From: Minutocellus sp. GHC0000111
Taxonomy: Eukaryota
Length of the DNA stretch: 64,000 nucleotides
Assembly: GCA_977018835.1 (NCBI GenBank)
Contig: OZ361259.1
Span: 3,286,001 to 3,350,000, forward strand
Reading direction: 5' to 3'
The translations under genes were made by a program, and so were the position numbers. The notes beneath the pieces are model-generated. The model was not told the origin of the DNA. It saw only the letters and a list, made by a program, of their open reading frames with translations, and did no database searches. Positions 2,710 through 64,000 of the stretch are shown piece after piece; position 1 is the stretch's first letter; every line of letters begins with the position of its first letter.

Positions 2710-5300
2710 ATGCGAACTCACTCGACATCTCTGCTGGCCCTGTCTGCATCTGCCGCAGATGCCTTTGTGGCCCCACGTAGTGTATTATCAACGCATATTC
2801 GATTGTTTTCAACGCTCTCACCAGACGAAATCAGCAAAGGCAACAGCGAACATCTCGTACCAGCCCCAGACCATCCGCCGTTACCGGCCTCCAGTCTTCG
2901 GTGGCATGTCGACCCATCAACGTTCAATTTCACCACCACTGGAAAATGGCGGTGCACTGCTCAATCAGGCCCGCGCCCGCTCGGCCATTGAATTCGGCGT
3001 CCACATGAAGCGAGATGGGTACAATTTATTTGTGCTGGGACCACAGGGAATGGGCAAGCGTACCATCGTCAAGAAGTATCTGCAGGAAGTGAGCAGCAAG
3101 GAATCCTCCACCACGCCGCCAGATTGGTGCTACGTGCACAACTTTGTCGATGCCGACAAGCCCAAGGCCATTAGTGTGGCGGCCGGTATGGGCAAGGAGC
3201 TCAAGAAGGACGTTGCGACGCTCACCGAGGAGCTTCAAACGGCCATACCGGAGGCCCTCGAAAAAACGAGCACAAGCAAAAGATTGAGGACAGTACCAAA
3301 TCCGTGTTTGGCGAGAATGAGCGTCAGATTGAGAACATATTTGAGGAAGCAAAGGGGAGCGGACTCTCTATCGCTCGGACGCAGACCGGATCGTTCGTCA
3401 TTGCCGGACCGGAGAAGAAGGAGGACGGCGAGCCCTTCAGTCCGGAAGAAGAGGAGTTCAAGGCCAAAGCCGCGAAAGAGCTGCAGCCTCGAGTCGAGAA
3501 GCTCATCAATGAAGTGCCCAAATTGCGCAAAGAAGCGATGTCCAAGGCAAAGGATTTGAATCGAAATTGTGCCAAGGGAGTAATTGATGACCACATGGCG
3601 TCGTTACGCACAAAATATGGCGAGTTCGATGAAGTCATAGCTCACTTGAACGCCTTACGGGACGATATGATGGAAAATTACGACCGCATCCACTCCGAAA
3701 ACGAGGAGAATGAATCGTCATTATCCATCATGTCCCAACCCAAGCGCCTATCGTTCGAAAAATACCACATCAACTCGTTCGTGGACAACTCTGAAGTAGA
3801 AGGCGCTCCGGTGATATATGAGGAACACCCTTTTCATCACAACCTCATGGGAAGAATCGACCACGCCTCAATGATGGGGTCGCTTGTAACCAATTTTTCC
3901 CTCATCAAGTGCGGTGCGCTACACAAGGCAAACGGCGGATATTTGGTACTTCGTGCGAGGGATGTGTTAATGCAGCCATTTGCGTGGGAATCATTGAAAA
4001 GAGCCATAAGAGGTCACTCGGTGAAGATCGAGAGCCTCGGAGCAGAACTGTCACTAATAAGCACAGTGACAATCCAACCTGAGCCCATCAGTTTGGACGT
4101 AAAAGTGGTTCTTCTTGGTGATCGTATGCTCTATTACTTATTGCAACAGTATGATCCTGACTTCGATGAGATCTTCAAGGTTGCGGCTGACTTCAATGAT
4201 GATGTCGACCGCTCAGATGAGTCCTGTCAGCTATATGCACAGATGCTCGCAACAATCGCGAACTCTGAAGAAACAAGGGCTCTGGACCGAGATGCTGTCG
4301 CCGGTGTAATAGAACAAGCGGCCCGGAGAGTTGGTGATCAAGAAAAGCTTTCTACTCACATGACTACCGTGACTGACCTGCTTCGCGAGGCCGATTTTTA
4401 TGCCGAGGCAGACAGCTCAAGCATAATTTGCGGAAGACACGTTGAGAAGGCACTAGAAGAGCAAATCTATAGAGCCGACAGAGTTCGAGAGCTGATTTAT
4501 GAGCAAATTCGCCGCGGTACACTCATTATAGATGTAGATGGGTCTGCGATCGGGCAGGTTAATGGACTCAGCGTCTTGGCTCTCGGAAAGCTGGCCTTTG
4601 GTCGTCCCTCAAAGATTACGGCAACCACGCGCCTGGGTCGGGGCAAAGTTGCTGATATTGAGCGTGAGGTAGAACTTGGTGGCAGTATACACTCCAAGGG
4701 CGTCATGATTCTCTCGTCTCTATTGGCGCATCGGTACGCAAAGGAGTTCCCACTCGCCGTGTCAGCTAGTTTGGTATTTGAGCAGTCATACGGCCAAATC
4801 GATGGTGACTCGGCATCAATGGCGGAGCTTTGTGCTATTTTATCATCGTTGAGCGGCGTGCCAATCAAGCAGAACCTCGCAATTACTGGCAGTACAAATC
4901 AATTTGGTCAAGCACAGCCAATCGGTGGTGCTACTGAGAAGATTGAAGGCTTCTGCGATGTTTGCAAAGCATCAGCTACAGGCCTCACCGGTGAACAAGG
5001 CGTGCTGATTCCAGAAAGCAACGCCCCTCACCTCATGCTTCGGCCTGATATTGTTGAGGCAGCGCAGCAAGGAAAATTTCATGTCTACACATACAAAAAT
5101 GTTGACGAGGCACTGTCTTTGTTGACTGGGGTAGACGCCGGAGAGCTAGACAGTAAAGGAAATATCCAGAAGGCACATTGAATTTCAAGGTAGATGAGAA
5201 GCTGCACGAGTATTCAATCATACTAAAAAATCTGGAAAGTACCGACGAGGAAGAAGTAATTAATGGAGAGAAAAGGGAAAAGTATTTTTTTACGTTGTAG
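2710..5300 (+). CDS. Plastid-targeted bacterial-type Lon-like protease (AAA_32 + Lon_C, LonB/LonC/YcbZ-like); three apparent frameshifts (~2941, ~3262, ~5161)
   Basis: Presequence MRTHSTSLLALSASAADAFVAP; Walker A GPQGMGKRT; GALHKANGGYL; catalytic Ser in IDGDSAS and Lys in IGGATEKIEGF. The C-terminal YPEGTLNFKVDEKL is recovered by adding one A at ~5161. Confidence 0.85.
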
Positions 5301-5342
5301 TCCATAAAAGCTAAGCATTTTACCACTGAGCTAGTGAGTCTA

Positions 5343-8297
5343 TTAGTTGAAACCCTCGGGCCCCGCCGCTTTGATTGTATCGTCAAATACTTGCTTTCTC
5401 AATAAGATTCGAATACTTCCTTCATAATCGCATGTGATGATTGCAGCACTAGAAAGATCATGATCCAGATCATCGAGCTGGTCTGAGATGGTCGGAAATA
5501 GACCACTTCGCTTCATGGCACGCTTCAACACAATAGTCGGAACAAAGTGTGCATCAGTAACAATTGGCTTCCGCTGATAGTTCGTAACTTGAAAGCTCTC
5601 GCTTGCCCATGACTTTTCGATTCCCCTACTGGTATGGATACCGTGCGAATCAATGCTCAAAGGGCGAGTTCGTGCGGTAGCATTCCAAATGTGCATCAAC
5701 CCACCGCTATCCGACCCCGAGATGATGTACTGTCCCGACTCGCTTATCCGTGCCTTGATTTGGAGGCTAGTGCTCTTCAAGCCCTTGTACTTCTTTTCTT
5801 GACAGTAGTCATCGAGTCCAAAGAGCCGCAGTCTCGAGTCGTTAGTGGACACAAGAATTTGTTCCTTGAACATTAAAGCATTTCGATCACGTCGTTTCAT
5901 CCGATGAAAGGCGACCTTGATGAGCTTGGGTGATACCTTCAGTTTTCTTGCCTGCCTCCGAACTTCTTCTAGATTCATAGATTTTCTGTTGAGCCGTCTT
6001 CTTCTCTTTGTCGGTGACGGCGTTTCTTTGTCACAATAGTCCTTGACAGTACTGGTAGGCGAAGTGCAGGACAGAGACCGCTCTCTTCCGTCGACATCCT
6101 TTCTCATTCGACGAAACGAGAACCCCGTGACTTTTGCTCCACTTTGTTTAGACCCATGCCGATCTCTAGCAGAGACCTGAGTGTAATACTTGAGACCATC
6201 TGGTGTTTAAAATAGAACTTGGCCACGGAACAATCCTGCGACGACATATTCTTCGTCAGGTGTGAAGGTCACAGAGGAAATACGATCTGGAGCCTGCGCC
6301 CACTCGGTAACTCGACCCGAGGGGGTATCCCAGACCCTTACCTTTCGATCGAAGCTCCCCGAGACAAAGTATTTGTCTTTCGTTGGGTGGAAGCTAACCG
6401 AAGTGACGAACGAAGCATGGGCAAAGGTCTTGAGGCTTGTCTTCTTGCTTACATGCCACAGTCGAACCGTCTTGTCCAAGGAGGCGGTGAGAAGAAAGCC
6501 CGTTCGTGACCAGGACAAATCGAAAATATCCGCGGTATGCTCTCGATATCTACGCAAGGGTTTGGAAGAAAGAATCTCAATGTCGGTGCCTAGTGCGGGC
6601 CCGCTACCTCGAGGATCTGTCGGTGGTGGTGCTCCTTTGGCTTCCTCCCACTCTTTCAGAGCGGCTGCCGTTGGGCAGAGGTCGATAGATTTTGGCTTCT
6701 TTGGGGCCACTTGGTAGATTGAAAGAAGACCATCATCACCAGCAGTGGCCAAATATCGTCCATCGGGGCTAAACTCCATCCTCCAGATTGGCCCGGCGTG
6801 GGCCAGGGTGATGCTGCCGATGAGAAGGAGAGGATCAAAATCTACAGCTCCCACTGCCTTGCCTACATTTGTTCCGCTCTGAGCTGTGACGACATTTTTG
6901 GGCAAGACATCCACAGGCTGAACCCCACCATCATTTGATTGGGCGCGCCGACGAAGCTTGATAGGACTAGTAAATTTGGGAGAGAATTCTTTAAACAGAC
7001 GTCTGGGACTTGGCAGCGTCACTGCCCGACGAAGTCGCAAATGGCCCCGTCGGCTGTGCTCCGAGGAGGATGGGGTATACACGTCCAGCGATGTGGAACC
7101 ATCATTCGATATAGAGGAGCCGTTCAAGTTTTCGTGCACTGCAAGTTCAATCTCCCCGTCGTCGTGAGTCTGGGCAATATCAATGCGAGGGCTATCGTCT
7201 GAGACGTCCTCCAACAAAAATGGATTGTCGTCATTATTTTGATCGTCAGAAGAAGCATCGGTTGAAGTAGTAGTTCGATCAGAATTTCTCGTCAGAGGAG
7301 ACTGTTCTTTGTGGGGACTTCTTGGAGACCAAGTCTTGTACCTTCGCAATGAAGACATCTTGGGTGCTTTGGACGCAGCATCTCTCATTTCGTCGTCGCC
7401 CTCCGGCAAGGGTGACGGTAGCCATTTCTCGGGTGATTTGGATAGGACCTTGTCCACCTCATTGTCCTCTCGTCTGCTGCTTTGACCTTCATCGTGCAGC
7501 AATCTGCATTTCGATATCGGGGAGTATGAGCACGACGACAAATCTTGATGCTCTATGGACTGGGCATACTCTAATGCATAGATATCTGCCGCCGATGGTG
7601 ATGCCATGTTGTACGATCGAGAGGGGTCGATGGCGCAAAATCTGCCACTATCTTCACCGCTGCTGTACCCATCAACGCTACCATCGTCGCATATATTCAC
7701 CTCATGAATGGAAACGACGGGGTGGATCGTATCATTTTCTTCGTACTCATCACGGGATGCATCGCGAGATGCTGTACCATGACTTTGTTGGTCGTGGGCA
7801 CTCGGCGATACCGACCTCTTTTCAATTTCGTGTTGCGTCCGCGTACGATGGTCCATTTCCGGCATGCTCATCGCCTCCTTTTTCGATGAACCCATACAAA
7901 GCCAAGCATTTTGCATTGTGACTTTATCGACACGAGGTCCGAGCCTTCGAAAGGCCGAGTTGGGCGAAACACCTGGCAAAGGCAGCGTCGTCGTCGATGT
8001 GGCATTGCTACTTTTGGGAGTTGGCGGCGGCAGACACAAGGTCAAATCCGCATGTCCAATATCACATTTCTCCTCGAAAGCATTGGCATGATCATCATCA
8101 TCGAACCACTGCGCCGATCGATTCTGTGGCGGCGTCTTCTTGTGTTGACTGCCAGTCGGCGACGTCTTTTCCACAGGCTTCGGAATCATATCATGCTCAT
8201 TAAAACTCTCCAAGGATGCATTGGAAAGCAAATCAAGGGCATCGTAGAACACAGTGGAGGTGTCCGATGGCGACGAGATCGTCTGCACATCGATCAT
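5343..8297 (-). CDS. WDR44: WD40-repeat protein, WDR44-like; one in-frame TAA at 6207-6209
   Basis: WD repeats (AHAGPIWRMEFSPDGRYLATAGDDG, HTADIFDLSWS..LLTASLDKTVRLW, FVSGSFDRKVRVW). The same frame continues past TAA as TPDGLKYYTQV...ILVSTNDSRLRL. Confidence 0.8.
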
Positions 8298-8802
8298 GTT
8301 TATTTTGTGAACTACCGTTCCCTCGAAGGGAGCAGAACGCAACCGAATAATCGAATCAAGAGCCGAAATGTGTTCTGTTCCAAACAGTCACCACCAGATC
8401 TTGCTCAATCTACCTTCTCCTCTCTTTGTGCTAAGAATGATGGTTCATTCGATTCGACTCCCAATTTTTCTTCTTTCTTCTTCTTCACACTGCAAGGGGA
8501 GGCCCAAATTAAGCACGCGACAGACACCGTCCTCTTGTTGTTTGGCAGTTATTTGACCAAATTGCTGGAGGTGAGCCGACCGCTCTCGCTTGGATTGATG
8601 GTGCCAAACGAGGTCTTGGTCGGTGCCAATATCCCAAGCGCGCATCCCGCTGTTTTGCAGATGTGCCAGCTTGCATTTTACGGTCGACGTACAGACGCAA
8701 TTATCCCAAGAGTCAGTCCGTCGACCGGATCTGCTACCGCTCGAGGAAGATGCTGATGGCAAAACGACGGCCCCTCCCTGCCTGCCGACAGAGAGAGCAG
8801 GC

Positions 8803-11577
8803 ATGACCGCCGAGCTGACCCAAACGATGGCCGAGCACGGCATATCTTCGTCTGCTGATATGTCGACGGATGAGGCTCTGGTGTACCGCCTTTTGGACTC
8901 CGTCGCCGCCGACGGTGGACTCACCGAGGATGCCAAGAAGGAGGTGCGTGTTGTGTGAGCGGTGCGCCAGTGTTATGTGCATGGTTTGGATCATCTCAAT
9001 CGTTGAATAATGGACAGAATCTATTCAGGGAGTAGCTTGCCTGCGAGTTGGTGTCCTTGGCATGTGTTTTACTGCATTTCATCGAAATGGACGAACGCAA
9101 GAAGTTAGCACAAGAAGTGCCGAGTTTCCAGAAACACAAACGCACGAAGAATTATTGGGGCATGTCTTCTGCCAGTCTCGCGAACGAAGAGTATCGATGC
9201 AGTGCCATCCGCCTTCTTCATCTGCCTTTTTTATCTAAGTATCTATGTATCAATGCGCACATCTCATTTATCTCGAATTTTGTGCTACCCTTTGCCTTGT
9301 ATCTTTCCATGATATTCGCAGATGGCCACCTTCCTCAAGGAGAACGAAAACGCCTACGCCGTCCTCTCGGATTGCATCGTCCGTCCTCTCATCATGACGA
9401 CGCTCTCCACCTCATCGAGTGATACTAGCGAACAAGACGAGATGCTTCCCATCAAACGGTCGTACCGAGCCACCAAGATACTCGAACAGGACGTGCAGTT
9501 GGCGGCCCAGATACAAAAGAGCGGTGGCAGCCTGGACGACATAGAGGAGAACGATGCGCTGATTTTGAACGGCACGAGGGCTGGTCTGTTGGCCAAGAAG
9601 TTGTTTGGAGCCTATGATCAAAAAGAAGAGGAGGACAGTGGAAAAGATTTAGCTGATCAACAGCAATACCTCCGTCCGCACATTCCGCACGTCAACCATT
9701 TGCTCAAGTCCCTCCTCGAGGGGTATGCCAACGCCGTGTGTATGGCAGCCTGCGCCGGAGGGAAGGAGGGCATCGAGGCCCACCTCGGACCCATGCTGAC
9801 CTACCGGTCCATGTCCTCCGCTTCGACCAAGGCAGCCGAATCCGGTGCCGACATTGGCAGCGCCGCCAGCTTGGAAAGTCCCCTGCCGACCTTGGCGGCC
9901 ATTGTCACCACGGGCTGCACCGGAAGACTGTCGTCGAATGCCGCCACGGAACAGACCCGAAATCAACAGATGATGAACAATCCCATGATGATGGCCCAGC
10001 AGGCTCAGGAATTTCATAACAGCACCAATCATCTTATCTCCAAGGGCCATCGACGGAAATTTGTCCGTAGCTTGGCCGATTGGGATTTGCTGACCAGGCT
10101 GGCCGACTGCATCGACCATCCCGGTACCGACGAGAGTGCCCTGTATCGAAGTGAGGCGGCATGCGATGCCTTGTTGTCGATTGTGGATACCGTTGGATTT
10201 CCTCCCATGCCGCCACCGGGTGTGGTTATGGATGCCACGAAAAAGAAGGAGATGGAGGAGAGTGTCGGTGAGGAGGCGCTGTTGGCACCGCTGGCGACCG
10301 ATGACTTTTTGCATCATTTGACGCACTGTGTTACCGGCGGCAGTTTGAACAATTCGCTTTCGGCATCACGCGCACTGTTGGGTTTGTTTGATTTAGCAAC
10401 TGGAAGGAGCAAGAACCATTCGGCTCCACCGGCGTTGGATGCGGCCGATGCCGATGAAGCTACCAGCGAAGCCGCCAAGGCTGTTGAGGACACGGTCGAG
10501 GTTATCAACAAAATCAAAAAGAGCGGACTGACCACATCAATGCATCAGCGTTTGATTGGCAGTATTGATGTGCTGGTGAAGGGCATCGATGTCTATGCGC
10601 TAGCAGATGGTGGATCGATCGATACAAGGAGTGAAGAGAATAGTGACGATGATAATGGCGGCGCTGTTCGTCATCCCGGCCATTATGCCATCAAACGACC
10701 CTTTACTTCTCGGAGGCTGCATCTCATCAGCCTTTTGGCGGACATTGTTGACTTTGATAACGCGAATGGCGATTCCACCGAAAATAAGGAAGAGGAGATC
10801 CACGACCACTCTGCCGCAAAGGTGGCAATCGATGCCATTTGCGCATTACCCCTTCCGCCCTCTTGCGGTGGAAAGGCTGACGAGGTGAATGATTCCGATG
10901 ATATTGTCTACAACCCCTTCCCAGGTTTCGTTGACCTCCAATTTGCATACCCTGAGAACAACCTATATCAGATTCAATTTTATCGATTGCTTCACTCGCT
11001 CTGCATGACCAATCACGAGGATGGCCTCAAGGTTCTGGTACAAAAGACTAAATTCGTTGGCCGGGCAATCAAAGCGATCAAGAACGACGCAACCGTGTCC
11101 AACAAGGGTGTATTGCTACGATGTCTCAACGCTCTCCGATTGCACAGTCAATCCTTGTCAACACATTCATTCCTCCGGCATTATCTGGATAGCCACGATG
11201 GCTGGAAATCCTACCAAGAAACTTTGCGAAGTACTACGATTGAGCAACAGCGCCTTGGCGGCGGTATACCGATGCCGCCAGCCAACGGGTTTATGCCTGG
11301 AATGGGTATGGCGGGCTTGGTCGATGCAATCAACAGCAATCCGCTGCTAGCATCGGATGACGAGGCAAATGGCAAGGAGAACGATGAGTTCGATATAGAT
11401 CTGGGAAGTGTTTATGCCAACGATCTTGGCTTCGACTCGACCATCAAGCCTTTTGTCGGGGATGACTCGGCGTCTCCAGAAGATGGCACATCAGCAGACG
11501 GCAAGGCCGACGGTGCGGCGGAAGCGCCAAGAAAAAGAAGAAGAACAAAAAGAAAAAGAAGAAATAAAAATGTTTGA
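8803..11577 (+). CDS. SIT4/PP6 phosphatase-associated (SAPS)-like protein; exons 8803-8943 and 9322-11577
   Basis: GT..AG intron 8944-9321 joins the exons in phase 0. PFTSRRLHLISLL and FAYPENNLYQIQFYRLL resemble SAPS C-terminal motifs. Basic tail. Confidence 0.6.
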
Positions 11578-11636
11578 TCAATGTATGCTAAGCTTAATGT
11601 TATTGTATTCAGTCCTGCGTAGTTGTGTTGGCAGAT

Positions 11637-11698
11637 GTGAAACTAGCTAGACCTCCTCGATAAACGAGTGAAACTAGCTAGACCTCCTCGATAAACGA
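11637..11698. repeat. Perfect 31-bp tandem duplication (gtgaaactagctagacctcctcgataaacga x2) covering the stop codon of the TPR-RING gene
   Basis: Directly visible at 11637-11667 and 11668-11698. Confidence 0.95.
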
Positions 11699-13347
11699 GC
11701 CATCTCTCATTACTCGCATTGATCTCTGCTGTCTGCAGACTGGGCAGGGCATCTGCTTTATAATACGATGCCCGAGGAGAGCTTGTGCCATGTCTTCGGT
11801 TGATATCTTCCTTCCACAATACTGCCGGAAACAATGGTTGTGAAACAAATGGTCACAGCTCAGTGGATTGACAACAGTACCTTCCACCCCAAGCAGCGAT
11901 TCCATACATATAGGATCTGAAGATCAACCTCGCGCCCGGTCTGTTTGAGAGCCTCCGCAAGGCTTACAATATTTCTCTTGTCATCTTCTGCATCTTCATC
12001 TGATCTCGGAGTGTATGTTGGAAGGGGGCGTGACATCCAGGAAAGGCGTCTTGCTCGAATGAGTGTTCGCAACATTTCAATCTCCATTTCCGAGTTGCCC
12101 GCGATATTATAACCGCGGATGCAGGCAGACAAGAGGGTACTTATCATCGGAAAATGCACCACCTCAGTGGAACCGTTGAAAAGTTTTCTACACGTGCTTG
12201 ATACGGCCTCGCACATTTTGTTGACGTGATCGCAATCCATCTTCTTCAGAGTGACGGTCTCGAAAGTCGATTTGATAGAGTTCACATACTGTCTCACATC
12301 TTCCAAATTCAACCCTATCCATTCAACAACAACCAGCCTCAAACGAATGTCAACCATACAGCGCAACACGCCCATGTAGATCATGCCGGGTTTCAAAATA
12401 GTTCAACGAAGACTGAAGTAGGTCAACACCAGCAAGGAGTATTCTTCTGGTTTCCGCCAACCGATTATACAAGCTTGCTCGTTCGTCGTCACTCCACAAT
12501 TTGATTGTAGGGATGTAGGTAGACAAATTGATTTGTGACCGAATCATTTCCTTTATCATGAGGGCTCGGGCTTGCTTGCAATTTAATTCTGCGTGTAAAG
12601 TATTTGGAAGGAAGCCGGCCTCGTGTCCATCATCAGATTTGTCAGAAACATCATTCTGTCACCTTTCAGGAAAGGTCGACAGAGTGCTGCGGCCTCCGAA
12701 CATAACTCAACACTCCTATCGAGATGACCAGCAGCTGAAGCGATTGATATTTTGTTGGGACATTGAGCGTAGTTGTCTCTACACAGAGCCTTTGCAAGAA
12801 TAATTTCAATCTCAGCTCGCTCCAATATGATCTTGACCTTGAGATGAGAATCCAATTTGCCTGAACCAATCGGGGAAATCTCGGAAAGTTCGCGGGTAGC
12901 ATTGACCATCGCAGCGAAATCTACAGAATCTTTGGCGGAGTGCAGCCGATCCAACTTTTCATAAACTTGTGCCAAAAGTTCGTCATAGTATCTACATAGC
13001 CGATTAGCGTGATTGGGGCGCTCATGGACTGTATCATTTTCTTCGTCGATCGTGAGAGCAAGTGTGCAGTGTTCCTTTGCCTTGATGCCCATGCCAAGCA
13101 TCAAGTAGCATTCTGCCGAATTAGAATGCATAGTAAGTTGAAGAGATCGGATAGAGTCTAGAACGCCGTTGTTTCCATCAGAAATATACCCGTCATTTGC
13201 AAGTTTCTCCTCGGCACGATTCAGATGCCAGGGACCGTCGATGTACACATGGATTGCACCATCAAAACTATCTTCGTGGAATAGCTTGTTGCCTTCTTCC
13301 CTTCTCTTATGCGCTGTTTCAAAATACTCTTCCCATGCAGCAGTCAT
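11678..13347 (-). pseudogene. TPR-like N-terminus + C-terminal RING finger protein, broken into about 4 frames; paralog of 32807-34460
   Basis: AHKRREEGNKLF...HSNSAECYL (TPR-like) and PLSCDHLFHNHC...MPCPVCR (RING). Frame changes near 12600, 12400 and 11910. May be assembly error rather than a true pseudogene. Confidence 0.65.
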
Positions 13348-13493
13348 CGTTGACTATTGGTTCAATTTATGGTCGATAAATATTGGAATGTTTACTTGAG
13401 AGGTGTGGGGCAATTTGGTGGATTTTGATGGGAACCGACAAGTTAAAATTTCGATGTATGTTGCAATGTGCATCACTCTTGCTGGTCCCGTCT

Positions 13494-14432
13494 TCAAGCC
13501 GACACCACAACATAATCTTCGTCAAATTCCAACCGATACCCCCTCCGCTCTCTACTAGTATCCAAACACTGCTCTTGAATAAACTTTTCCACCTTCCTTT
13601 CCGCCTCCTCCCTCCCTGCCTCCCCCAGCTCCTCCCATTCCGTCGGCGTCCACGTGTCTGCAATCGAAAACAATCTCACGAGATTGGTAAATTCTGCCAA
13701 CAGGTCCGCAGGTACCGCCAGCGAAACCTTTTGAGGATATGCCCTGTATGCCACGTTTGGCAAATCATCCAGCTTTCGACACAGCGTGCCGGTGTGCATC
13801 TCCACCTCGTGATTCGGTCGGAGGGAGCACATGAACTCGTACCACGGACCACGGGGGGCGATCAGCGCCACCACAAGACGACCATTGGGTTTTCGCAACC
13901 CCGCATGCAACTTTTGCAAACATTCCGTCCATTTCGATGTGGCGACGTGATACAGCACGTGCGAGCACAGGATCAAATCGTACGCGTCGGGGGCAATGGT
14001 GGCCTCCTCCAGCGTGGGTGATGGATGGACGGCAAAGGGTGGTTCCGACCGGGCATAGCTGGCCAGATAGTCCGGTGAGGGGTTGGGTTCCATCACCTCG
14101 ATTATACGGAAATGTCGGGCCAATTTGTGCGTGATTTGTCCGGGACCAGCGCCGACGTCCAGAAGTGACAGCCCATTATTTCCACTGTTTCGTTTCTCAT
14201 CATCACTACTACTCGTAGCATCGTTACTTATTGTTGAAGAAGATGATGACGATTGTAGTAGATCCGGTATCACTGTCCGTTCGAGGAAGGCGATGATGTG
14301 TTGGACGTGCTGGGAGTAATCCGAATACAAATGCTCCACTTGAGAGTATATTTCGTCGGTGAAGCAAGAGTGGCCGATGCCGGTGCTTGCTGGGGTGGTG
14401 GTAGCCGTGCCCTCGCCGTTCTTCAGGCTCAT
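13494..14432 (-). CDS. Class I SAM-dependent methyltransferase
   Basis: LLDVGAGPG (motif I), YDLILCSHVLYHV, LRKPNGRL. ATG at 14432. Confidence 0.85.
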   Translation of the reverse strand: MSLKNGEGTATTTPASTGIGHSCFTDEIYSQVEHLYSDYSQHVQHIIAFLERTVIPDLLQSSSSSSTISNDATSSSDDEKRNSGNNGLSLLDVGAGPGQITHKLARHFRIIEVMEPNPSPDYLASYARSEPPFAVHPSPTLEEATIAPDAYDLILCSHVLYHVATSKWTECLQKLHAGLRKPNGRLVVALIAPRGPWYEFMCSLRPNHEVEMHTGTLCRKLDDLPNVAYRAYPQKVSLAVPADLLAEFTNLVRLFSIADTWTPTEWEELGEAGREEAERKVEKFIQEQCLDTSRERRGYRLEFDEDYVVVSA

Positions 14433-15055
14433 GGTCGGTGGCCGACGTTGTTTCAAGCCTGCCAAGAGTGAAAAGTGAAAGTGAAAGTCGTTCTGTTTTC
14501 GTGACTTGTTCGACTGCCAATGTCAGCCGGCAGGCTTTTTCCGTACCTAGGTAAGTCGGCGCTGCAGGCTCGTATCGGAGGGAATTTTTTGTCGATCAGA
14601 TGCGATGCGTGCCAGAGATCGGCCTTGACTGAACTGGCGATGAGAGATGCCATTGGATGACAATATTGTTCTCGGTCCTTGGCTGAAACGGCAAAGAATA
14701 GGGTCTGGCTTGTCGCCCAGTACTCTGGCGTTACTTCGATCTGCGGCTGTTTTCCCCGAGGCGTAGCAGTCTAAAAAACGAGCCCATCTTGCGTGCCTTG
14801 TGCATGTGCTACTTTTGGACTCTTGACCGCTTCGCTTTTTCGTTCGTTCTGTGCCAACACAACCCTCCAGAAAGCGAGCAATTGTCATTTGCCCTGATAC
14901 TAGTACCCTGTTCCTCGTGGCAATCGGCCGGTCCTAGTGCATCTCTTGTTCGTTCCGATAACGTTATTTTTCGCTGATCGATTGCGTCGCGGGCTGGCTC
15001 CGTATCTTTTTATACGCTCTGTGCTGAGCCGAGGCAAAATATTATCAGTACAACA

Positions 15056-57553: not shown

Positions 57554-58512
57554 CTATTCCACGGCATGATACCCGCAAAGTGGGGCTTCCGCCACCTTTA
57601 GCTCGCGAACGGTGGCCGTTTCCAAATGTGGCAGCGTTCTGTGCAACGATCCGTCCATCTTCTTGAAGCCCGTCTGCAGTATTTGCAATACGTCGCCGTG
57701 GGCACATAGAATGCATTTATACTTCTTCTCTCCTTCGCTTGCCTTTGTCAATTCTTGGTCAATATCCAGCACAAGCTTGGTTGTTCGTTCGACCACACTG
57801 TACACACTCTCCACATCAAACTCATTTTGTGTTGGATCTTTGATATCAATGTCCCAAACATCCTGGTATCTGTCATCACTCCCTCCATTCAATGTGCCGA
57901 AGTTCCTTTCCCTAAGCTTGGTCTCGAGCACAACGCCATCCTTGTACAAGGGGATGGATGATGACATGCACGCATCGGCCATATGCTGGGCGGTCTCTCT
58001 GGCACGCTTAAAGTCGGATGAAAATATTGCGACGCCACAATATTCATCGTTTCCTTCACCACCATCGCCATTATCGTTGTCGGCATGAAACTGCTCGGCG
58101 AATAGTTTGCCGGCCTCACGTGCCTGCTCATGCCCAAAGTCGCTCAGACCATGCTCTACCGTCGATATGGCCGGATCAGAAGAAATGATTTTGGCAACGT
58201 TGGCCAACGATTGTCCATGTCGTAGGGCAGAATAGGAATGGCGCAGCGAGCCATCTTGACCTGTGGCTGGTATAGACAGCAGGTGGTTGGGCTGCTCGGC
58301 CGACGTGGAGAATGCAGCAGCTGTCATTCGAGCGGCATGCTGATATCTGGCAACGGAAGATCTACCCAGAGTGATGATGGAAGCTCTGCCTAACGCACTG
58401 CAAGCAAAGGGGGTAGAAGTAGACAGGGCTGCCGCCAGGGTTGGTGCTGCTGCCGTCATTATTCTCATCATCGCCGTTCGTTCCATCCGCCATGCCGATA
58501 TGCCATGCCGGC
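57554..58512 (-). CDS. Histidine phosphatase / phosphoglycerate-mutase-family protein; 5' end interrupted by the transposon
   Basis: LRHGQS, SSDFKRARETA, LRERNFG, AHGD motifs. Remaining in-frame ATGs in MERTAMMRIM. Confidence 0.85.
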
Positions 58513-59214
58513 CAAGAGCACATAACAAAAAATAGGTGGTGCACGCATGGCAGAAAGCAAGGGAAAAATTCCACCATGTTTGGCACTCTTTTTTTGGGTG
58601 ATTGTGGATGACGTTAATTTCTGGCCCAAGCGCGCATCTTTCATCTTCAACGCGCACCGCGCAAATAATACTAGGCCTACTACGCCATAAGCCGAAGGGC
58701 TGCTTCGTCGTGTCGCCCACATCCCCCTTCCGGCGGAACGAGCCGCCATGGCGTGCAGGTGCCCTCTTGCGTGGTGCCTGCAACAAGTACGCCGATCCGG
58801 CGGCGTCGTTGCCTAAGCAAATGGGCGATTGCTTGCCCACCGTCAGCGCGAGCTGCCGCTGCCGCCCCCTCCCGTCGTACTTATTGCCGCCAACTGGCAT
58901 GTCCGGTGCTTTTGTATTGATCAACCCATCGGTTCCGGCGTGCTGCCCATCGAGATGTGAGAAACATTCTGTTCGTGAATTTATTCATGTGAGGGCATCT
59001 ATGGACGGTTCTTGGCTGGGCATCATGTATTCATTCTCCCGAATCATACTGAGTTCAGCTGGTAATGGTAGCACGGTCAACAATGGCGGCAGCCGATGTG
59101 GCCGACAAGGGACCTTGCGTCCGTATCTTGTCAGCCCCTTTTGCCGCTGGAGTCACCCGCTTTCCATTTCTTGCTTTGCTAAGTTTGTGTACAGATACGA
59201 ATATGTACATTATT

Positions 59215-62200
59215 TTATGTGCATTTTTCAACATCTCCCTCAAAATCTAACTTCTTCTTTGCTCCACTTGTCGCCTTCAATTTTGCTCGCAAGGCCATGT
59301 CGGCTTTATCAATCTGCTGCTCATTGTATCGTCGCGTCGCTTCTCCAGCGCGTGCATGGGAGGCTTTCTTGACAATCTTGGTGAATATTATCTTCTTTTC
59401 GCCTTCCGGTAGGTCAATATCGTTTTCTGCTTTGTTGAATAGTCCCCACAAGTCTTCGTCGCTGATGATGGTCTTGTATTCTCCTTGATTGCCTCTTTGC
59501 CGACTTCTTCGATGGTCTTTTCATTCACTAATTCCCTTGTTCTTTTCATTACCATCCTTCCAAAGGGCACATATTGGGGGGCCAGGAGGAATAGGCCACC
59601 GCGATTTCGTATCTGGTCGATTGGAGCGTAATATTTCTGTAAGTATCCTGCGTCTTTTATTGCTTCGCGATGCAACAGTCTCATTGATTTCACATGCAGC
59701 ACTGCCTTCCGATCACTGTTCTCACACGTATTTTCATCCTCGTCTTCGTTGTCTTCTTCGTAGAAGAAGCTTTCAGAGTCTTGCCACTTCTCACGATATT
59801 GATCGAGCACTTCTTTCATGGCCCAACCGACGAAGTTGGTTACTTCCGAATTCTCTTCGTCCTGGTCGATGGATCCCTTTGCGTTACCGTTGGTGGTGAT
59901 AGCGGCGGTACTGGAATCACTGGGCGATGTGAAAGTATCGATGATGGCTTCATCAAGCCAATTACTGAAAAGCCGAGCGAGATGTTGCTCCACGATGGCG
60001 GCGGCAAGATGAGACTGGGACAGAGACGCCGGCAGCAGCTTCCGCAGATCTTGAAATTTCTTGCTAGTAATGAAGTCATGCTGGTGCCACCAGAATGACT
60101 GTTTATGGCCGGACTTCTGCATGATGCTCTTGTCTAGTGATGTAAATGCTGTGAGTATCATTTGCTGGCACGCCAAATTGAAGAGCACTTCGTCTTCCTC
60201 ATCTAACGATGCGATTGCTTTGAAACATTTCTCTTCTTCCGTTCCAACGCTCACTCTTGCCATTCCCTCAAATGTTTCGTCATCCAGCAGGTAGTCAGAG
60301 AAGTTGGAATCAATGTTGTATGTCGCCATCGTTTTGTGCAGACTGCGCATGCGCTCGGTGGAGCCAACCGCCGGTTGATCTCCCTCGCCATCCTCATCGT
60401 CGCAAGGAGGAAGTATCGAGATGGATGCCTCTGCCGGCTTCTTTTTCTCGTCTCGCCACGACTTTACCACCAGAGCTCGGCGATCGTCTGTGCGCCCCAT
60501 CACCGACTCCAGACGATTCCATGACACTGCTACCTCCGTGGTGTCGCCTTCGTAGTTTGGGTTGGATTCGTTCATAATCTGGATGCTGTCTTGAGAGTTG
60601 ATGGCTGTTATTGCGGACGGATAGTTGTGGACAGAGTCGCCGCCCAAGTATCGAATGTGTGAGAAGGTAGCTTCAAGCGATGACTGGTTGGCATGGAGGA
60701 ATTTGACGTACGAGGGAGGGTTCGGTAGCAGGAAGACGAGTCGGCAGCATTGAAAGAAGCCGCAAACACCAATCCGAAGGTTTTTGTACGTGGTGGTAGA
60801 AATATAGGACTTTTCCCACGCAGGGTTGCCTTGTTGCTTGAGCTGCAAAGAGGCGAGTCGCCAAGCCTCGAAGTACTCCAAAGCAGACCTAGTCTCTTTC
60901 TCCTTCTCGTCGATGTTGTCTGGGGTGACACTGACCTCGCCATTCAAAAAGTTTTCAATAAAAATAGTCCCGACATGAAAGTTGTACTCTACGTGAGCCA
61001 GGTCTTGCCGTAGCTGTTGAAAGTTGGCGTCGCCTAGGACATTGGAGATTTTGCTAACTTCGCTCGCGTTGTCGGACGACGGAAAGACCGTCGTTCATCC
61101 CGAACGAAGCTCACCATGGTGCCCCCCGCTCTTGACCGCTGCACATTTGCAAGGTAAGACATGGGCATTCCCGAGGCTGGCCGACACCACTGCGCTGCTC
61201 ATGCGAAAGTTTCAGCTTCATTGGACTGTTGTTGCATGAGAAAACATAATTCAAAACAATCAACCTGTGTTTGAGCACGCGAAAAAGGGCCACGGATGAG
61301 AAGTGACACCAAGAGAGCCACAGTCGCCCAATCCACCCAGAATTGCAGAGATGCACGCCTGAGATGTGCATGAAAATGTTTGTTTGGTTGATTGTTGTGT
61401 GTTTGATTCGTGTCCGCCCCCGCATCGGCCGCCAATGAGAGCAAAATTTCGTCCGGCGTCGTCGTTTTTCTCGCGAAACTTTGCCCCCACCCACCAAACA
61501 CATGTTGTGCTTGGAATTTTTGAGCTGCGCCTTCGATGCCACATTTCTACAGGGTGTCTAGATGTGTGGCATTTGCTCAGAATTCTCAATTCTCCCATTC
61601 ATTCCAGAGATTCTTGGGGGCAAAGGTCTGCCGGACGGCGAATTTCGCGTTCTCCCATGCTTCGCCGCGTTGAAAACGGTCGACGGAAAGACGAATGTCC
61701 AGTTTTCGGGTCGAGCGGCTCACCTAAAGCTGGACCAACTCACCACCCTGGGAGAAAAACGCGCCGTGCGGGGCCTCCCTGCAAGCTGGCGAGCTGAGTT
61801 TTGAATCTCACCCAAAATGAAGCCCACCAGGTCGCCGACTGCAGCCGTCTAGTCCAGAGCCAGCTCAGCTGCATCGCCGGCAGCGTCCTTGACAGCCTCC
61901 TTGGCGAGCTCCTCCAAGAGCACTGACCTCGCCGAAGCATGGTCGCTGCCAACAACGTGGTCAGCAGCCGTCTTGAAGAGGTCAAGCATGACGCCATCCT
62001 TCTCGAGGTCAAAAGCGACTTTGCAAGCATCACTCTCCAGCTTTGTCTTGGCGTAGCGCAGGCGGTCCCTGGTGGAGCGGGCAGCTTTCCGTTGGTTCTG
62101 CTGGCGCTCCTTCAGCCTCGTCGGGGTCAGGTGCTTGATCGGAGCTCGGCTGCTGGCGCCGACCTGCTTGGCGCGATTCAGTTGCTTCCTGTTCTCCCGT

Positions 62201-63367
62201 CGGAGGAAGTTTTTCCTTTCAGTCGAGCACGGACCACACAAAATGCCATCCCGCTCGAATTCACCTAAGGAGACCAGCCCACACGAAGCGTCGCCGAACG
62301 ACGGACGGACAAAAATTGACCCAACTCCTTTCTCCTAGCTTAACGCTAGCAAAATGCCGATGGCTGCCCCGCAAAATACGCATTGCTGCCTGACCCTCCT
62401 TGGACGCAACAAATCCCTCTCCTTGCATGCTGTGCATTCGCACCAGTGAAGCAGTCAAGTCGGCGGCGGATGGCAGCACCAAGCCAACCTCGTCGTACAG
62501 CCGAGGATGTTTATCAGGACTGATAGCAGAAAATGCGGTTGCACAGCCATCACACACGTCCACCGGAGCCTCGGAAGTTGCACCAATAAATATCGAACAG
62601 TCCGGGCTCCGCCATGCTCCATCCTTTTGCGTGAAAGAGAAGTATTTGGAACACACTCCACGACCAATGTCTCCAGCTTGCAGCACGCTCAACAACTGAG
62701 GATGGCCACCAATACCGGACCGACACGCATCACAGATTTGCACTACGCCAGATCCATCGCCACCGCCAGCACCGGTGGAACCACCACTAATGCCTGTGGT
62801 GTCACACGCCGGTGTAATCGGAGCGGCCGCCCCATTGCCAACCTTCGCTTTCTTGGGGGTCTTGTGCGTTCCCAAAGGGACCGACGGATGTTGGTCCGCC
62901 TCCAAGAGCCGCTTGACGCTGGCTGCCGACCGAGAGCTTTTGCCACCGAGCACCATCATCAAGGATCGGGACTGATCGATAGTATGGTCTGGAGGCCAGA
63001 AATATTTACCATTGAACTCGTTGATGGCTTCTGCAAAACCGTGTCTCTTTGCAATCTCCGCAGGAACGGGCGTTGTCGGAAAATGGCTCTTGCCGTCTGT
63101 TTCTCCAGCAAAGTATTGAAGCGCGTCAGCAGAGAAATGATGCTTCGCAATCTCGTACCTCTCAACATCAAATTTGAATCCAGATAAAGTGAGATTCTTC
63201 TTCAGAACTGCCTGGTATTTTTTACTCTTGTCACTATCTTTCAATCTGAACTCGAACCCGCCGCTTCTGATGTTGTTGTGAGACTCGTCGATAATGCGAC
63301 GTATCTTGTCGCAATCGTCATGCCTGCACAGGCATTTCCTGGCACCAGCAGGGGTGCCGCTGCTCAT
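59215..63367 (-). pseudogene. P-element/THAP9-like transposase, disrupted (frameshifts ~62328 and ~59480, TAG 61849, central deletion, nested insertion)
   Basis: N-terminal THAP-like KCLCRHDDC...IAKHHF; coiled coil; QNSARQLAGRPRTARFSPRV; C-terminal catalytic-Glu motif HANQSSLEATFSHIRYLGG (compare xNQDxLExxFxxxRxxGG). The central Asp motifs were not found. Confidence 0.78.
61086..61681. mobile_element. Nested ~600-bp non-coding insertion with short TIRs and an 8-10-bp TSD
   Basis: Direct repeat cgacggaaagac at 61077-61088 and 61681-61692. Ends gaccgtcgttca... / ...ttgaaaacggtc are imperfect inverted repeats. Confidence 0.6.
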
Positions 63368-64000
63368 GACCGCGGCAACCAAAGGGCACACGACAGGTGA
63401 TGTGCATCCGCGGTCGATGCTCGCGAAAAGAAGAACCGATGCCGGCCAATAAGTACAATGGAGGGCAAGTTCCGACGCGTGGCGCGTGCGCGCAAAGGAG
63501 GGTTGGAAAATTCGATGTGCGCTCGCGCAAGGCACTTGGGCCAAAATTAACGGATTCCACATTCACCCCAAAAAAAGAGTGCCGAACATGGTGAGCGCAA
63601 AAGCGCGCGCGTGGACCACCCTGTTATTTGTTATTTGCTCTTGATGCCGGCTGCGCGGCAGCATGGCGAAAATGAGCACCCCCCGTTTCTTGAGCTCCCG
63701 AAAATAAGCAAGAAACCCTCATAAGCCGATAGGAACTCCAACGCCTGAGCCACTCATTCAAACCTGATGATAGCCACCACAATGAGGTGCCTTTCGAAGC
63801 GTCCCCTTGCCGCCGCTGCATTCGCTGCTGTAGCATCTGAACCTACGTTAGGGCCCCATGGCCCTTGGCCTCTCGCATCTTGCGTGCAAGCATTTTCTTC
63901 TCCTCCCAGAATAACCAGACTTGCGCGCACGCAACGATGTGTCACAACGTCCACCACTGACGCACGAGACACCGAAGCCCCTAAATTGCCCGACTCGCAT

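Follow-up and report, generated by a model that had tools for sequence, protein, structure and literature searches.

A defective P element in the genome of a likely diatom and a spliced RNA antisense to the transposase of its family

The window analysed here is a stretch of 64,000 nt from contig OZ361259.1 of Minutocellus sp. GHC0000111, and near its right end it holds a transposable element (TE) of 5,131 bp (58513-63643, termini CA...TG) with the remains of a transposase gene on the minus strand, in four pieces. We describe it as a genuine, dead P element that belongs to a large diatom lineage with poor annotation, from a family that very probably makes a spliced RNA antisense to its transposase. 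An initial annotation of the same DNA had proposed a P-superfamily transposon with an exact 8-bp target site duplication (TSD), terminal inverted repeats (TIRs) of about 34 bp and subterminal inverted repeats of about 59 bp; all three were recovered, the subterminal repeats with a length of 62 bp (Table 1). The TSD, ATGCCGGC, stands directly outside the CA...TG ends, a fixed place at which an exact 8-mer match has a chance of about 1.5e-5. A further copy of the element was not found within the window.

Table 1. Features of the element and its flanks, in window positions (ORF, open reading frame; HTH, helix-turn-helix; MITE, miniature inverted-repeat transposable element).
Feature	Position	Strand	Evidence
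Flanking host gene, histidine phosphatase superfamily; start just outside the element	57554..58494	-	PF00300, E 1e-17
TSD, left copy, ATGCCGGC	58505..58512	.	exact match
TIR at the 3' end relative to the transposase, begins CAAGAGC	58513..58546	.	85.7% to the other TIR over 35 columns
Subterminal inverted repeat, 62 bp, 59 bp inside the element	58572..58633	.	87.3% over 63 columns
Antisense exon 1; RNA contigs start at 58677, 58686, 58701 and 58706 (probable start)	58677..58956	+	RNA contigs
Antisense intron 1, 337 nt, GTGAGA...CAAG	58957..59293	+	skipped in 4/4 RNA and 0/3 DNA-like runs
Transposase gene, 3' part: catalytic E (60674-60672) and helical C-terminal region; a 1-nt deletion near 59480 shifts the frame	59215..61037	-	ORF, alignment
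Antisense intron 2, 157 nt, donor GTAGGT here and GTAAGT in the majority form	59409..59565	+	skipped in 4/4 RNA and 0/3 DNA-like runs
Antisense intron 3, 125 nt, GTAAGT...GTAG	59639..59763	+	skipped in 4/4 RNA and 0/3 DNA-like runs
Antisense intron 4, 140 nt, GTGAGT...GCAG	60151..60290	+	skipped in 2/4 RNA runs (X7, X12; one study) and 0/3 DNA-like runs
Nested high-copy MITE-like repeat, GAGTTGGTCC ends, left 30 nt lost	61039..61741	.	aligned run contigs, depth
Transposase gene, 5' part: C3H THAP-like domain (about 63137-63334), Cys-rich region, coiled coil, start of the HTH	61742..63367	-	ORF, alignment
Subterminal inverted repeat, 62 bp, 50 bp inside the element	63532..63593	.	87.3% over 63 columns
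TIR at the element's 5' end	63609..63643	.	34-35-bp TIR pair
TSD, right copy	63644..63651	.	exact match
Start of a likely flanking host gene, without Pfam match	63782..64000	+	ORF, head to head with the phosphatase gene

The previously reported motif NQxxLExxFSxIRxxGG, NQSSLEATFSHIRYLGG, lies within the minus-strand ORF 59388-61094, and its glutamate (codon 60674-60672) is conserved in 98% of 62 family rows. An intact ORF with D, D and E is absent from this copy, where the core is replaced and two frameshifts and one stop are found; the defects of the 5' part are a 4-nt insertion near 62300 and the stop at 61851-61849. None of the element's own ORFs matched Pfam at E <= 1. When P0030, a relative at 60% identity with one uninterrupted ORF (1,153 aa; 1,481 aa as P0180, which includes the N-terminus), was searched against the window by tblastn, its residues 190-542, comprising both aspartate motifs (D1 and D2), the CxxH motif and the GTP domain, were unmatched. 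D1 and D2 are deleted here and present in the sister copies P0023 and P0027. This copy is thus defective and non-autonomous, as had been claimed.

Twenty sequencing runs were found and the contigs of seven of them were aligned, namely four RNA runs (X7 and X12 of study P3, X9 and X11 of study P4) and three DNA-like runs (X1, X3 and X5). In the aligned contigs the majority form of the family carries, in place of 61039-61741, 1,145 other nt of transposase core, a length that keeps the frame. The segment found here instead is a MITE-like repeat: its depth is 5,000-15,000, whereas the element has 1,300-1,800 and the flanks have about 200, and its other copies start GAGTTGGTCCCATTTTAGGTGAG, an imperfect inverse of its right end. 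The repeat measures about 730 bp, has GAG...CTC ends, is present in high copy number and occurs in RNA runs too. A decayed piece of transposase was considered for this segment and ruled out (no tblastn match, far higher depth, TIRs of its own). The repeat lacks its left 30 nt, lost along with the transposase core at a 3-nt microhomology (61036-61038), probably through insertion of the MITE and a later deletion.

Contigs of all four RNA runs skip segments of the element that no DNA-like run skips, and antisense introns 2-4 lie within the transposase coding sequence. The skips have GT..AG borders on the plus strand, with canonical donors and pyrimidine-rich acceptors, and would be CT..AC if read on the transposase strand. 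These data are contigs, in which the strand comes from GT..AG only, rare forms are dropped and transcript starts are only weakly hinted. The RNA contigs start at 58677-58706 without a loose part and extend to 63265-63469. In X7 the depth in all six bins checked was accounted for by spliced contigs alone, so that no contig runs over introns 2-4, which would be obligatory in a sense mRNA; spliced contigs alone also explain the depth at intron 2 in X9 and X11 and at intron 3 in X9. This shows that the spliced form dominates, which is different from an absence of sense RNA. The contig starts further suggest that a promoter directed inward is likely to lie inside the element, about 170-190 bp from its 3' end. 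In one contig of X12 the beginning of antisense exon 3 is linked to 63458 (59409-63458, one side of only 21 nt); this contig is possibly the spliced RNA of a short copy with an internal deletion, about 1.2 kb long, or else an artefact.

Several observations weigh against a controlling antisense RNA. X11 shows surplus cover over intron 3 (55.5 vs 29.3) and unspliced contigs of introns 1 and 4 occur in X9 and X11, hence RNA that is unspliced or sense is present to some extent. The variants in the RNA are those of the majority copies and not of this copy, and contigs of X7 and X11 carry an intact core, indicating that the RNA derives from copies other than this one. The plus strand has three GTRRGT hexamers, all of them used, so the splice sites may be fortuitous; the acceptors sit on the complement of Glu/Asp/Lys runs, and the donor excess in the ORF of this copy is not significant (2 vs 0.49, p 0.075). 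Finally, an intact family transposase was not found: all members listed are truncated, the longest with 726 aa, and a helper was not seen.

With these points in view, it is a real though lesser possibility that the element is a P element and the antisense RNA incidental, arising from a cryptic promoter or one well-placed copy, with the spliceosome using such strong sites as it meets and without any role in control. The use of every GTRRGT site fits this, as do acceptors on pyrimidine runs that the protein forces, the use of intron 4 in only one study and a family that looks dead, in which there may be nothing to restrain. In 13 family ORFs antisense GTRAGT occurred 26 times vs 17.45 expected from synonymous shuffling (p 0.03), a modest excess with five ORFs having none, and sense GTRAGT 4 times vs 15.44; 20 host ORFs of the window had 3 vs 7.2 expected on each strand. 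As 13 tests, mixed genomes and five ORFs with none are involved, the antisense donor excess in the family is a weak hint at most. What speaks for more than chance transcription is that identical joints were found in all four RNA runs, from two studies, with the spliced form dominant, and that the host ORFs of the window avoid antisense donors whereas the family ORFs, which come from other genomes, do not.

It is improbable that the inward promoter instead belongs, as a remnant or as an active start, to a second gene of convergent orientation at the 3' end, whose RNA encodes a short peptide or former cargo. The longest ORF past the contig starts has 120 aa (191 aa if counted from an ATG that precedes these starts) and stays open across three splice joints, and a related metagenome locus, L031, bears a convergent ORF of 536 aa at its 3' end, inside the subterminal repeats. 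The length of the 120-aa ORF is, however, ordinary, being matched in 11 of 35 antisense control windows (p 0.055 vs shuffles), all five variants inside it are non-synonymous, and tblastn found nothing like the L031 protein in the window or the other 30 loci. Rfam gave 0 matches over 58400-63800. The antisense RNA looks non-coding.

The family to which the element belongs is almost certainly part of the P superfamily, in agreement with the first proposal. P0030 matched, in this order, the Pfam families Tnp_P_element (E 0.003), TNP-like_RNaseH_N (3.5e-5) and TNP-like_GBD (6.5e-4); the last, the GTP-binding domain PF21788, is under the cut-off, and was aligned by profile to 6P5A residues up to 425. 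Relatives of P0030, counted as 50%-identity representatives, number 1,148 at E <= 0.001 and 432 at E <= 1e-10. A profile of 107 relatives gave a single significant match in PDB, the Drosophila P transposase 6P5A (E 1.3e-17), with both Asp motifs (D1, D2), the xxH motif and the GTP domain in register; single-sequence searches of PDB with P0030 and of related loci with P0180 returned no match and no locus, respectively. The AlphaFold model of P0030 (predicted local distance difference test score, pLDDT, 84.5) had two Foldseek matches at E <= 0.001, both to P transposase (6PE2/6P5A, E 7e-12, template modelling (TM) score 0.67-0.73 over the target), and the next superfamilies followed at E >= 0.016 (Mutator-family ISCth4, E 0.016; Transib; Hermes (hAT), E 0.03, TM 0.28). 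Residues D261, D374, C420, H423 and K426 are invariant in 36 long members and E670 is present in 98% of 62 rows. Pfam matches at E <= 0.1 among these 36 were PF21787 in 31, PF12017 in 7 and PF21788 in 3; the proposed check with hidden Markov models thus found P domains in the relatives and nothing in the element ORFs of the window, nor any THAP. That the element belongs to another C/DxxH superfamily, be it hAT (also with 8-bp TSDs), Kolobok or MuDR, is very improbable and largely refuted: although the motif is CxxH and not the DxxH of Drosophila P, C/DxxH is described as common to five superfamilies in the available part of PMC9587614 and single-protein Pfam matches are near or under cut-offs, profile and fold favour P by many orders of magnitude, the GTP-binding insertion aligns with P, no hAT Pfam family is among the 25 of 26 matches listed, and Kolobok has TTAA TSDs and RR..YY ends (the same part of PMC9587614) where the TSD here is 8 bp and the ends CA...TG.

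The long C-terminal extension noted earlier is present, not as a tail peculiar to this copy; what follows the catalytic glutamate is family-wide, helical and well predicted, with the conserved motifs EVNRFVGWA, NxGGL and a terminal ARxG...R. P C-terminal domains carry YIAGY and RGGL motifs, which the family motifs resemble, so that the extension is probably the P C-terminal domain behind a long helical insert. The placement in a stramenopile lineage also held, since, among 25 clusters looked up, all four transposase relatives with a named source are diatoms (Minutocellus polymorphus, Skeletonema dohrnii, Thalassiosira profunda and T. oceanica). Window ORFs resemble what we take to be a fucoxanthin-chlorophyll protein and bipartite plastid presequences, and the host is likely a diatom.

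The THAP-like N-terminus of the initial annotation held in part. The pattern CxCx3-4C...[IV]AxxH[FWY] is found in nine proteins with five invariant columns and in 5 of 16 metagenome loci. Its ligands are C3H, with Ala at the position of THAP's third Cys and an additional N-terminal Cys; many relatives carry different N-termini, several without the C3H pattern. The domain had no match in Pfam, THAP included, or in PDB sequences, the Atlas held no usable match, and a protein search with it added one new protein. Its model reached pLDDT 65, and Foldseek placed the P THAP domain (3KDE) 26th with E 6.9. With VIA-align, two rows among 48,161 chains had Z >= 2 and both are THAP (Z 2.8, root-mean-square deviation 3.2, 68/74 aligned; and Z 2.6). 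A THAP fold is thus weakly supported by the model, with a score that is specific but low, and the Z of 2.8 counts against leaning on it. The domain resembles THAP (PF05485; 3KDE, 2JM3) in its N-terminal position, the early Cys pair and the terminal xxH[FW], and differs in the third Cys, in the extra N-terminal Cys and in the lack of a hidden Markov model match. THAP is said to be restricted to animal genomes in the available part of PMC7776569.

A degenerate D2 and CxxH pattern yielded 31 metagenome loci, of which 28 are relatives by tblastn, and paired inverted repeats were found in 6 of the 14 longest loci checked. Two have CA ends and exact 8-bp TSDs, L001 (4,755 bp, starts CAGGGG) and L011 (6,489 bp, starts CAAGGATAC). 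L004, with CA at both ends and an intact ORF of 1,367 aa, has no TSD, which weighs against the proposal that other copies share it, and is possibly a merged assembly; two of the three relatives open to this check accordingly have the 8-bp TSD, at a protein identity of 27-32%. In L014 and L017, which have CA ends, the left flank is only 1 and 3 nt, too short for a TSD check. Altogether CA...TG stands at both ends of L001, L004, L011, L014 and L017 and at the one available end of L006 and L031. A tree of 33 cores, limited to family members without an outgroup (five rows were dropped as the motif cut failed), placed L001 beside the protein of T. oceanica and L017 beside that of Skeletonema, with L011 and L031 as sisters. 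Three loci are complete or near-complete with one intact ORF of 1,367-1,465 aa and are candidate autonomous elements (L004:58-4798, L014:2-4754 and L024).

Some relatives carry additional genes or domains. For the paired 196-bp repeat of L031, a reading as TIR without TSD was rejected: outside it, at 127, stands a CA end of P type, the opposite element end being beyond the contig, and the repeat is subterminal. The convergent 536-aa ORF (L031:5837-7444, minus strand) had an Atlas score of 0.94 to a cluster in which 19% of the members bear Tet_JBP, and no match in Pfam or PHROGs and no significant one in PDB. Its HTD and HAG motifs resemble what we presume to be a 2-oxoglutarate/Fe dioxygenase, and the gene is possibly TET/JBP-like by these sequence features; such cargo on a P element would be unusual, if true. 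L017:4-9473 is a 9.47-kb element with CA ends and a single ORF of 2,758 aa that comprises the P core and, N-terminally, hydrophobic and Cys-rich parts, and that gave a weak ubiquitin-like match. Extra C-terminal domains are found in P0062, P0088, P0055 and P0092, the Thalassiosira profunda protein having BRCT and an Ulp1 protease (E 2e-30), that of T. oceanica BRCT and P0092 SAP.

Closer to the present copy, the proteins of the family are encoded on at least 11 contigs of megabase size, which may belong to more than one assembly, and depth gives a rough estimate of 11-17 haploid equivalents. In three family clusters 15/16, 8/8 and 15/18 members were examined, and a search for longer proteins returned P0030 only. 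Of 15 N-terminal proteins listed, eight stop at one common frameshift (complete length 509-510 aa) that arose by a 4-nt duplication, and six of the eight lie on separate ENA contigs, a spread of a broken form like that of KP. P0011, P0017 and P0025 share the diagnostic residues and the start site of this copy, and P0011 and P0017 also its 3' frameshift. This points to a defective sub-lineage that was likely copied in trans after loss of the core, as judged from the protein sequences.

When the element is subtracted, 148-166 bp separate the likely start of the phosphatase gene from the likely gene starting at 63782, head to head, and an insertion between two such genes is consistent with the promoter preference described for P in the available part of PMC7776569. 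An in-frame ATG at 63664, upstream for the phosphatase gene, was severed by the insertion. An X7 RNA contig (57547-58569) runs from the phosphatase gene 57 nt into the element end with zero differences, so that the 5' end of this gene may now lie in the element; the element's intron 1 is uncovered in X7. Between 57986 and 58420 of the phosphatase gene, two haplotypes about 7% apart occur in X1 and X3, and an X3 contig at the right-end junction of the element has about haploid depth. The insertion may be heterozygous. The joint of an unoccupied allele was not seen in the aligned run contigs, which is not evidence of its absence.

Considering these results together, we find it probable that the locus holds a defective P copy of a likely diatom, in a family whose spliced antisense RNA likely starts in the 3' end and likely restrains the element. 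By analogy with Drosophila P, a GTP-dependent Asp-Asp-Glu (DDE) transposase would bind near the ends via its N-terminal zinc finger, excise the element and reinsert it with an 8-bp stagger, here into the gap between two head-to-head genes. MITE insertion and deletion removed the core, and the sub-lineage would then have moved in trans. From an inward-facing promoter near the 3' end, a non-coding RNA would be made over the whole ORF, and it might block sense transcription by interference or enter, as double-stranded RNA, a small-RNA/DNA-methylation pathway; the common 509-aa truncated product might act as a putative repressor like KP. In the available part of PMC4247016, diatom TEs are described as methylated and as having small RNAs on both strands, with a 25-30-nt pathway in Phaeodactylum. 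A dominant spliced antisense RNA is a concrete candidate source of the double-stranded trigger for such small RNAs. For the silencing role itself we hold slightly more doubt than confidence. A wider picture remains speculative and rather unlikely as a whole: diatoms would harbour a large undescribed P lineage in which the 3' end is a regulatory module, with an inward promoter for antisense self-silencing here and a convergent TET/JBP-like enzyme acting on host DNA methylation in the sister family, and with a THAP fold with C3H ligands outside animals.

The Drosophila P transposase has about 750 aa, and that of this family differs in size with about 1,480 aa, its ORF being intronless in P0180, L014 and L024. 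Both share the order zinc finger, coiled coil, HTH, RNase H split by a GTP domain and helical C-terminus. Drosophila P (6P5A/6PE2) further has, as far as the available text of PMC7776569 describes it, the same CA...TG ends, TIRs of about 31-34 bp with subterminal repeats, 8-bp TSD, internally deleted non-autonomous copies and insertion beside promoters. Compared to it, the present family has CxxH in place of DxxH, a C3H N-terminal pattern in place of C2CH, an extra Cys-rich region, several hundred more residues past the catalytic E and a spliced antisense RNA, the word 'antisense' being absent from the main text of PMC7776569. The KP element and its 66-kDa repressor (the available part of PMC7776569) are alike in that the 8 of 15 short family proteins keep the DNA-binding domain and coiled coil; KP was made by a deletion, whereas the short form here comes from a 4-nt duplication and its repressor activity is putative. 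The fungal elements P-1_PSt and P-1_MLP (the available part of PMC3164196), compared by description only, are likewise non-animal P elements with 8-bp TSDs, and differ in that their hosts are rust fungi.

Antisense RNA from inside transposons is known from the convergent transcripts of maize MuDR, the L1 antisense promoter and IS10 RNA-OUT. These also lie opposite the transposase, and the RNA described here differs from them in being multi-intron, apparently non-coding and spread over nearly the whole P ORF. P elements are known mostly from animals, and because the diatom family is large and near or under Pfam cut-offs it is probably being missed. The TE inventory of T. rotula was reportedly made with an annotation tool of few classes. 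It names five DNA superfamilies and no P in the available part of PMC11842555, and in those of PMC7466962 and PMC12477816 P is not among the 12 DNA superfamilies of Cyclotella cryptica and is missing from the curated TE table of Ectocarpus. Stramenopiles appear as minor hosts in a broad DDE survey (10.1101/2021.09.26.461848, available part), and the available parts of PMC4455052 and 10.1101/2021.08.01.454642 do not give the host range. The literature search returned no paper on P elements of diatoms or on antisense splicing in a P element; Repbase and the key surveys lay outside its scope, and an earlier record is quite possible.

What is added to the initial annotation is the replicated antisense splicing, the nested repeat, the TSDs in two distant families, the weak-but-specific THAP fold and the cargo of the relatives. 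L004 and L014, complete with one long ORF, might serve as a native transposon tool in diatoms and could show whether P elements in general use GTP and leave 17-nt overhangs. Elsewhere in the window, 3175-5181 holds an ORF of 668 aa with few or no introns, which resembles what is presumably a bacterial/archaeal Lon-type (LonB/LonC) protease.

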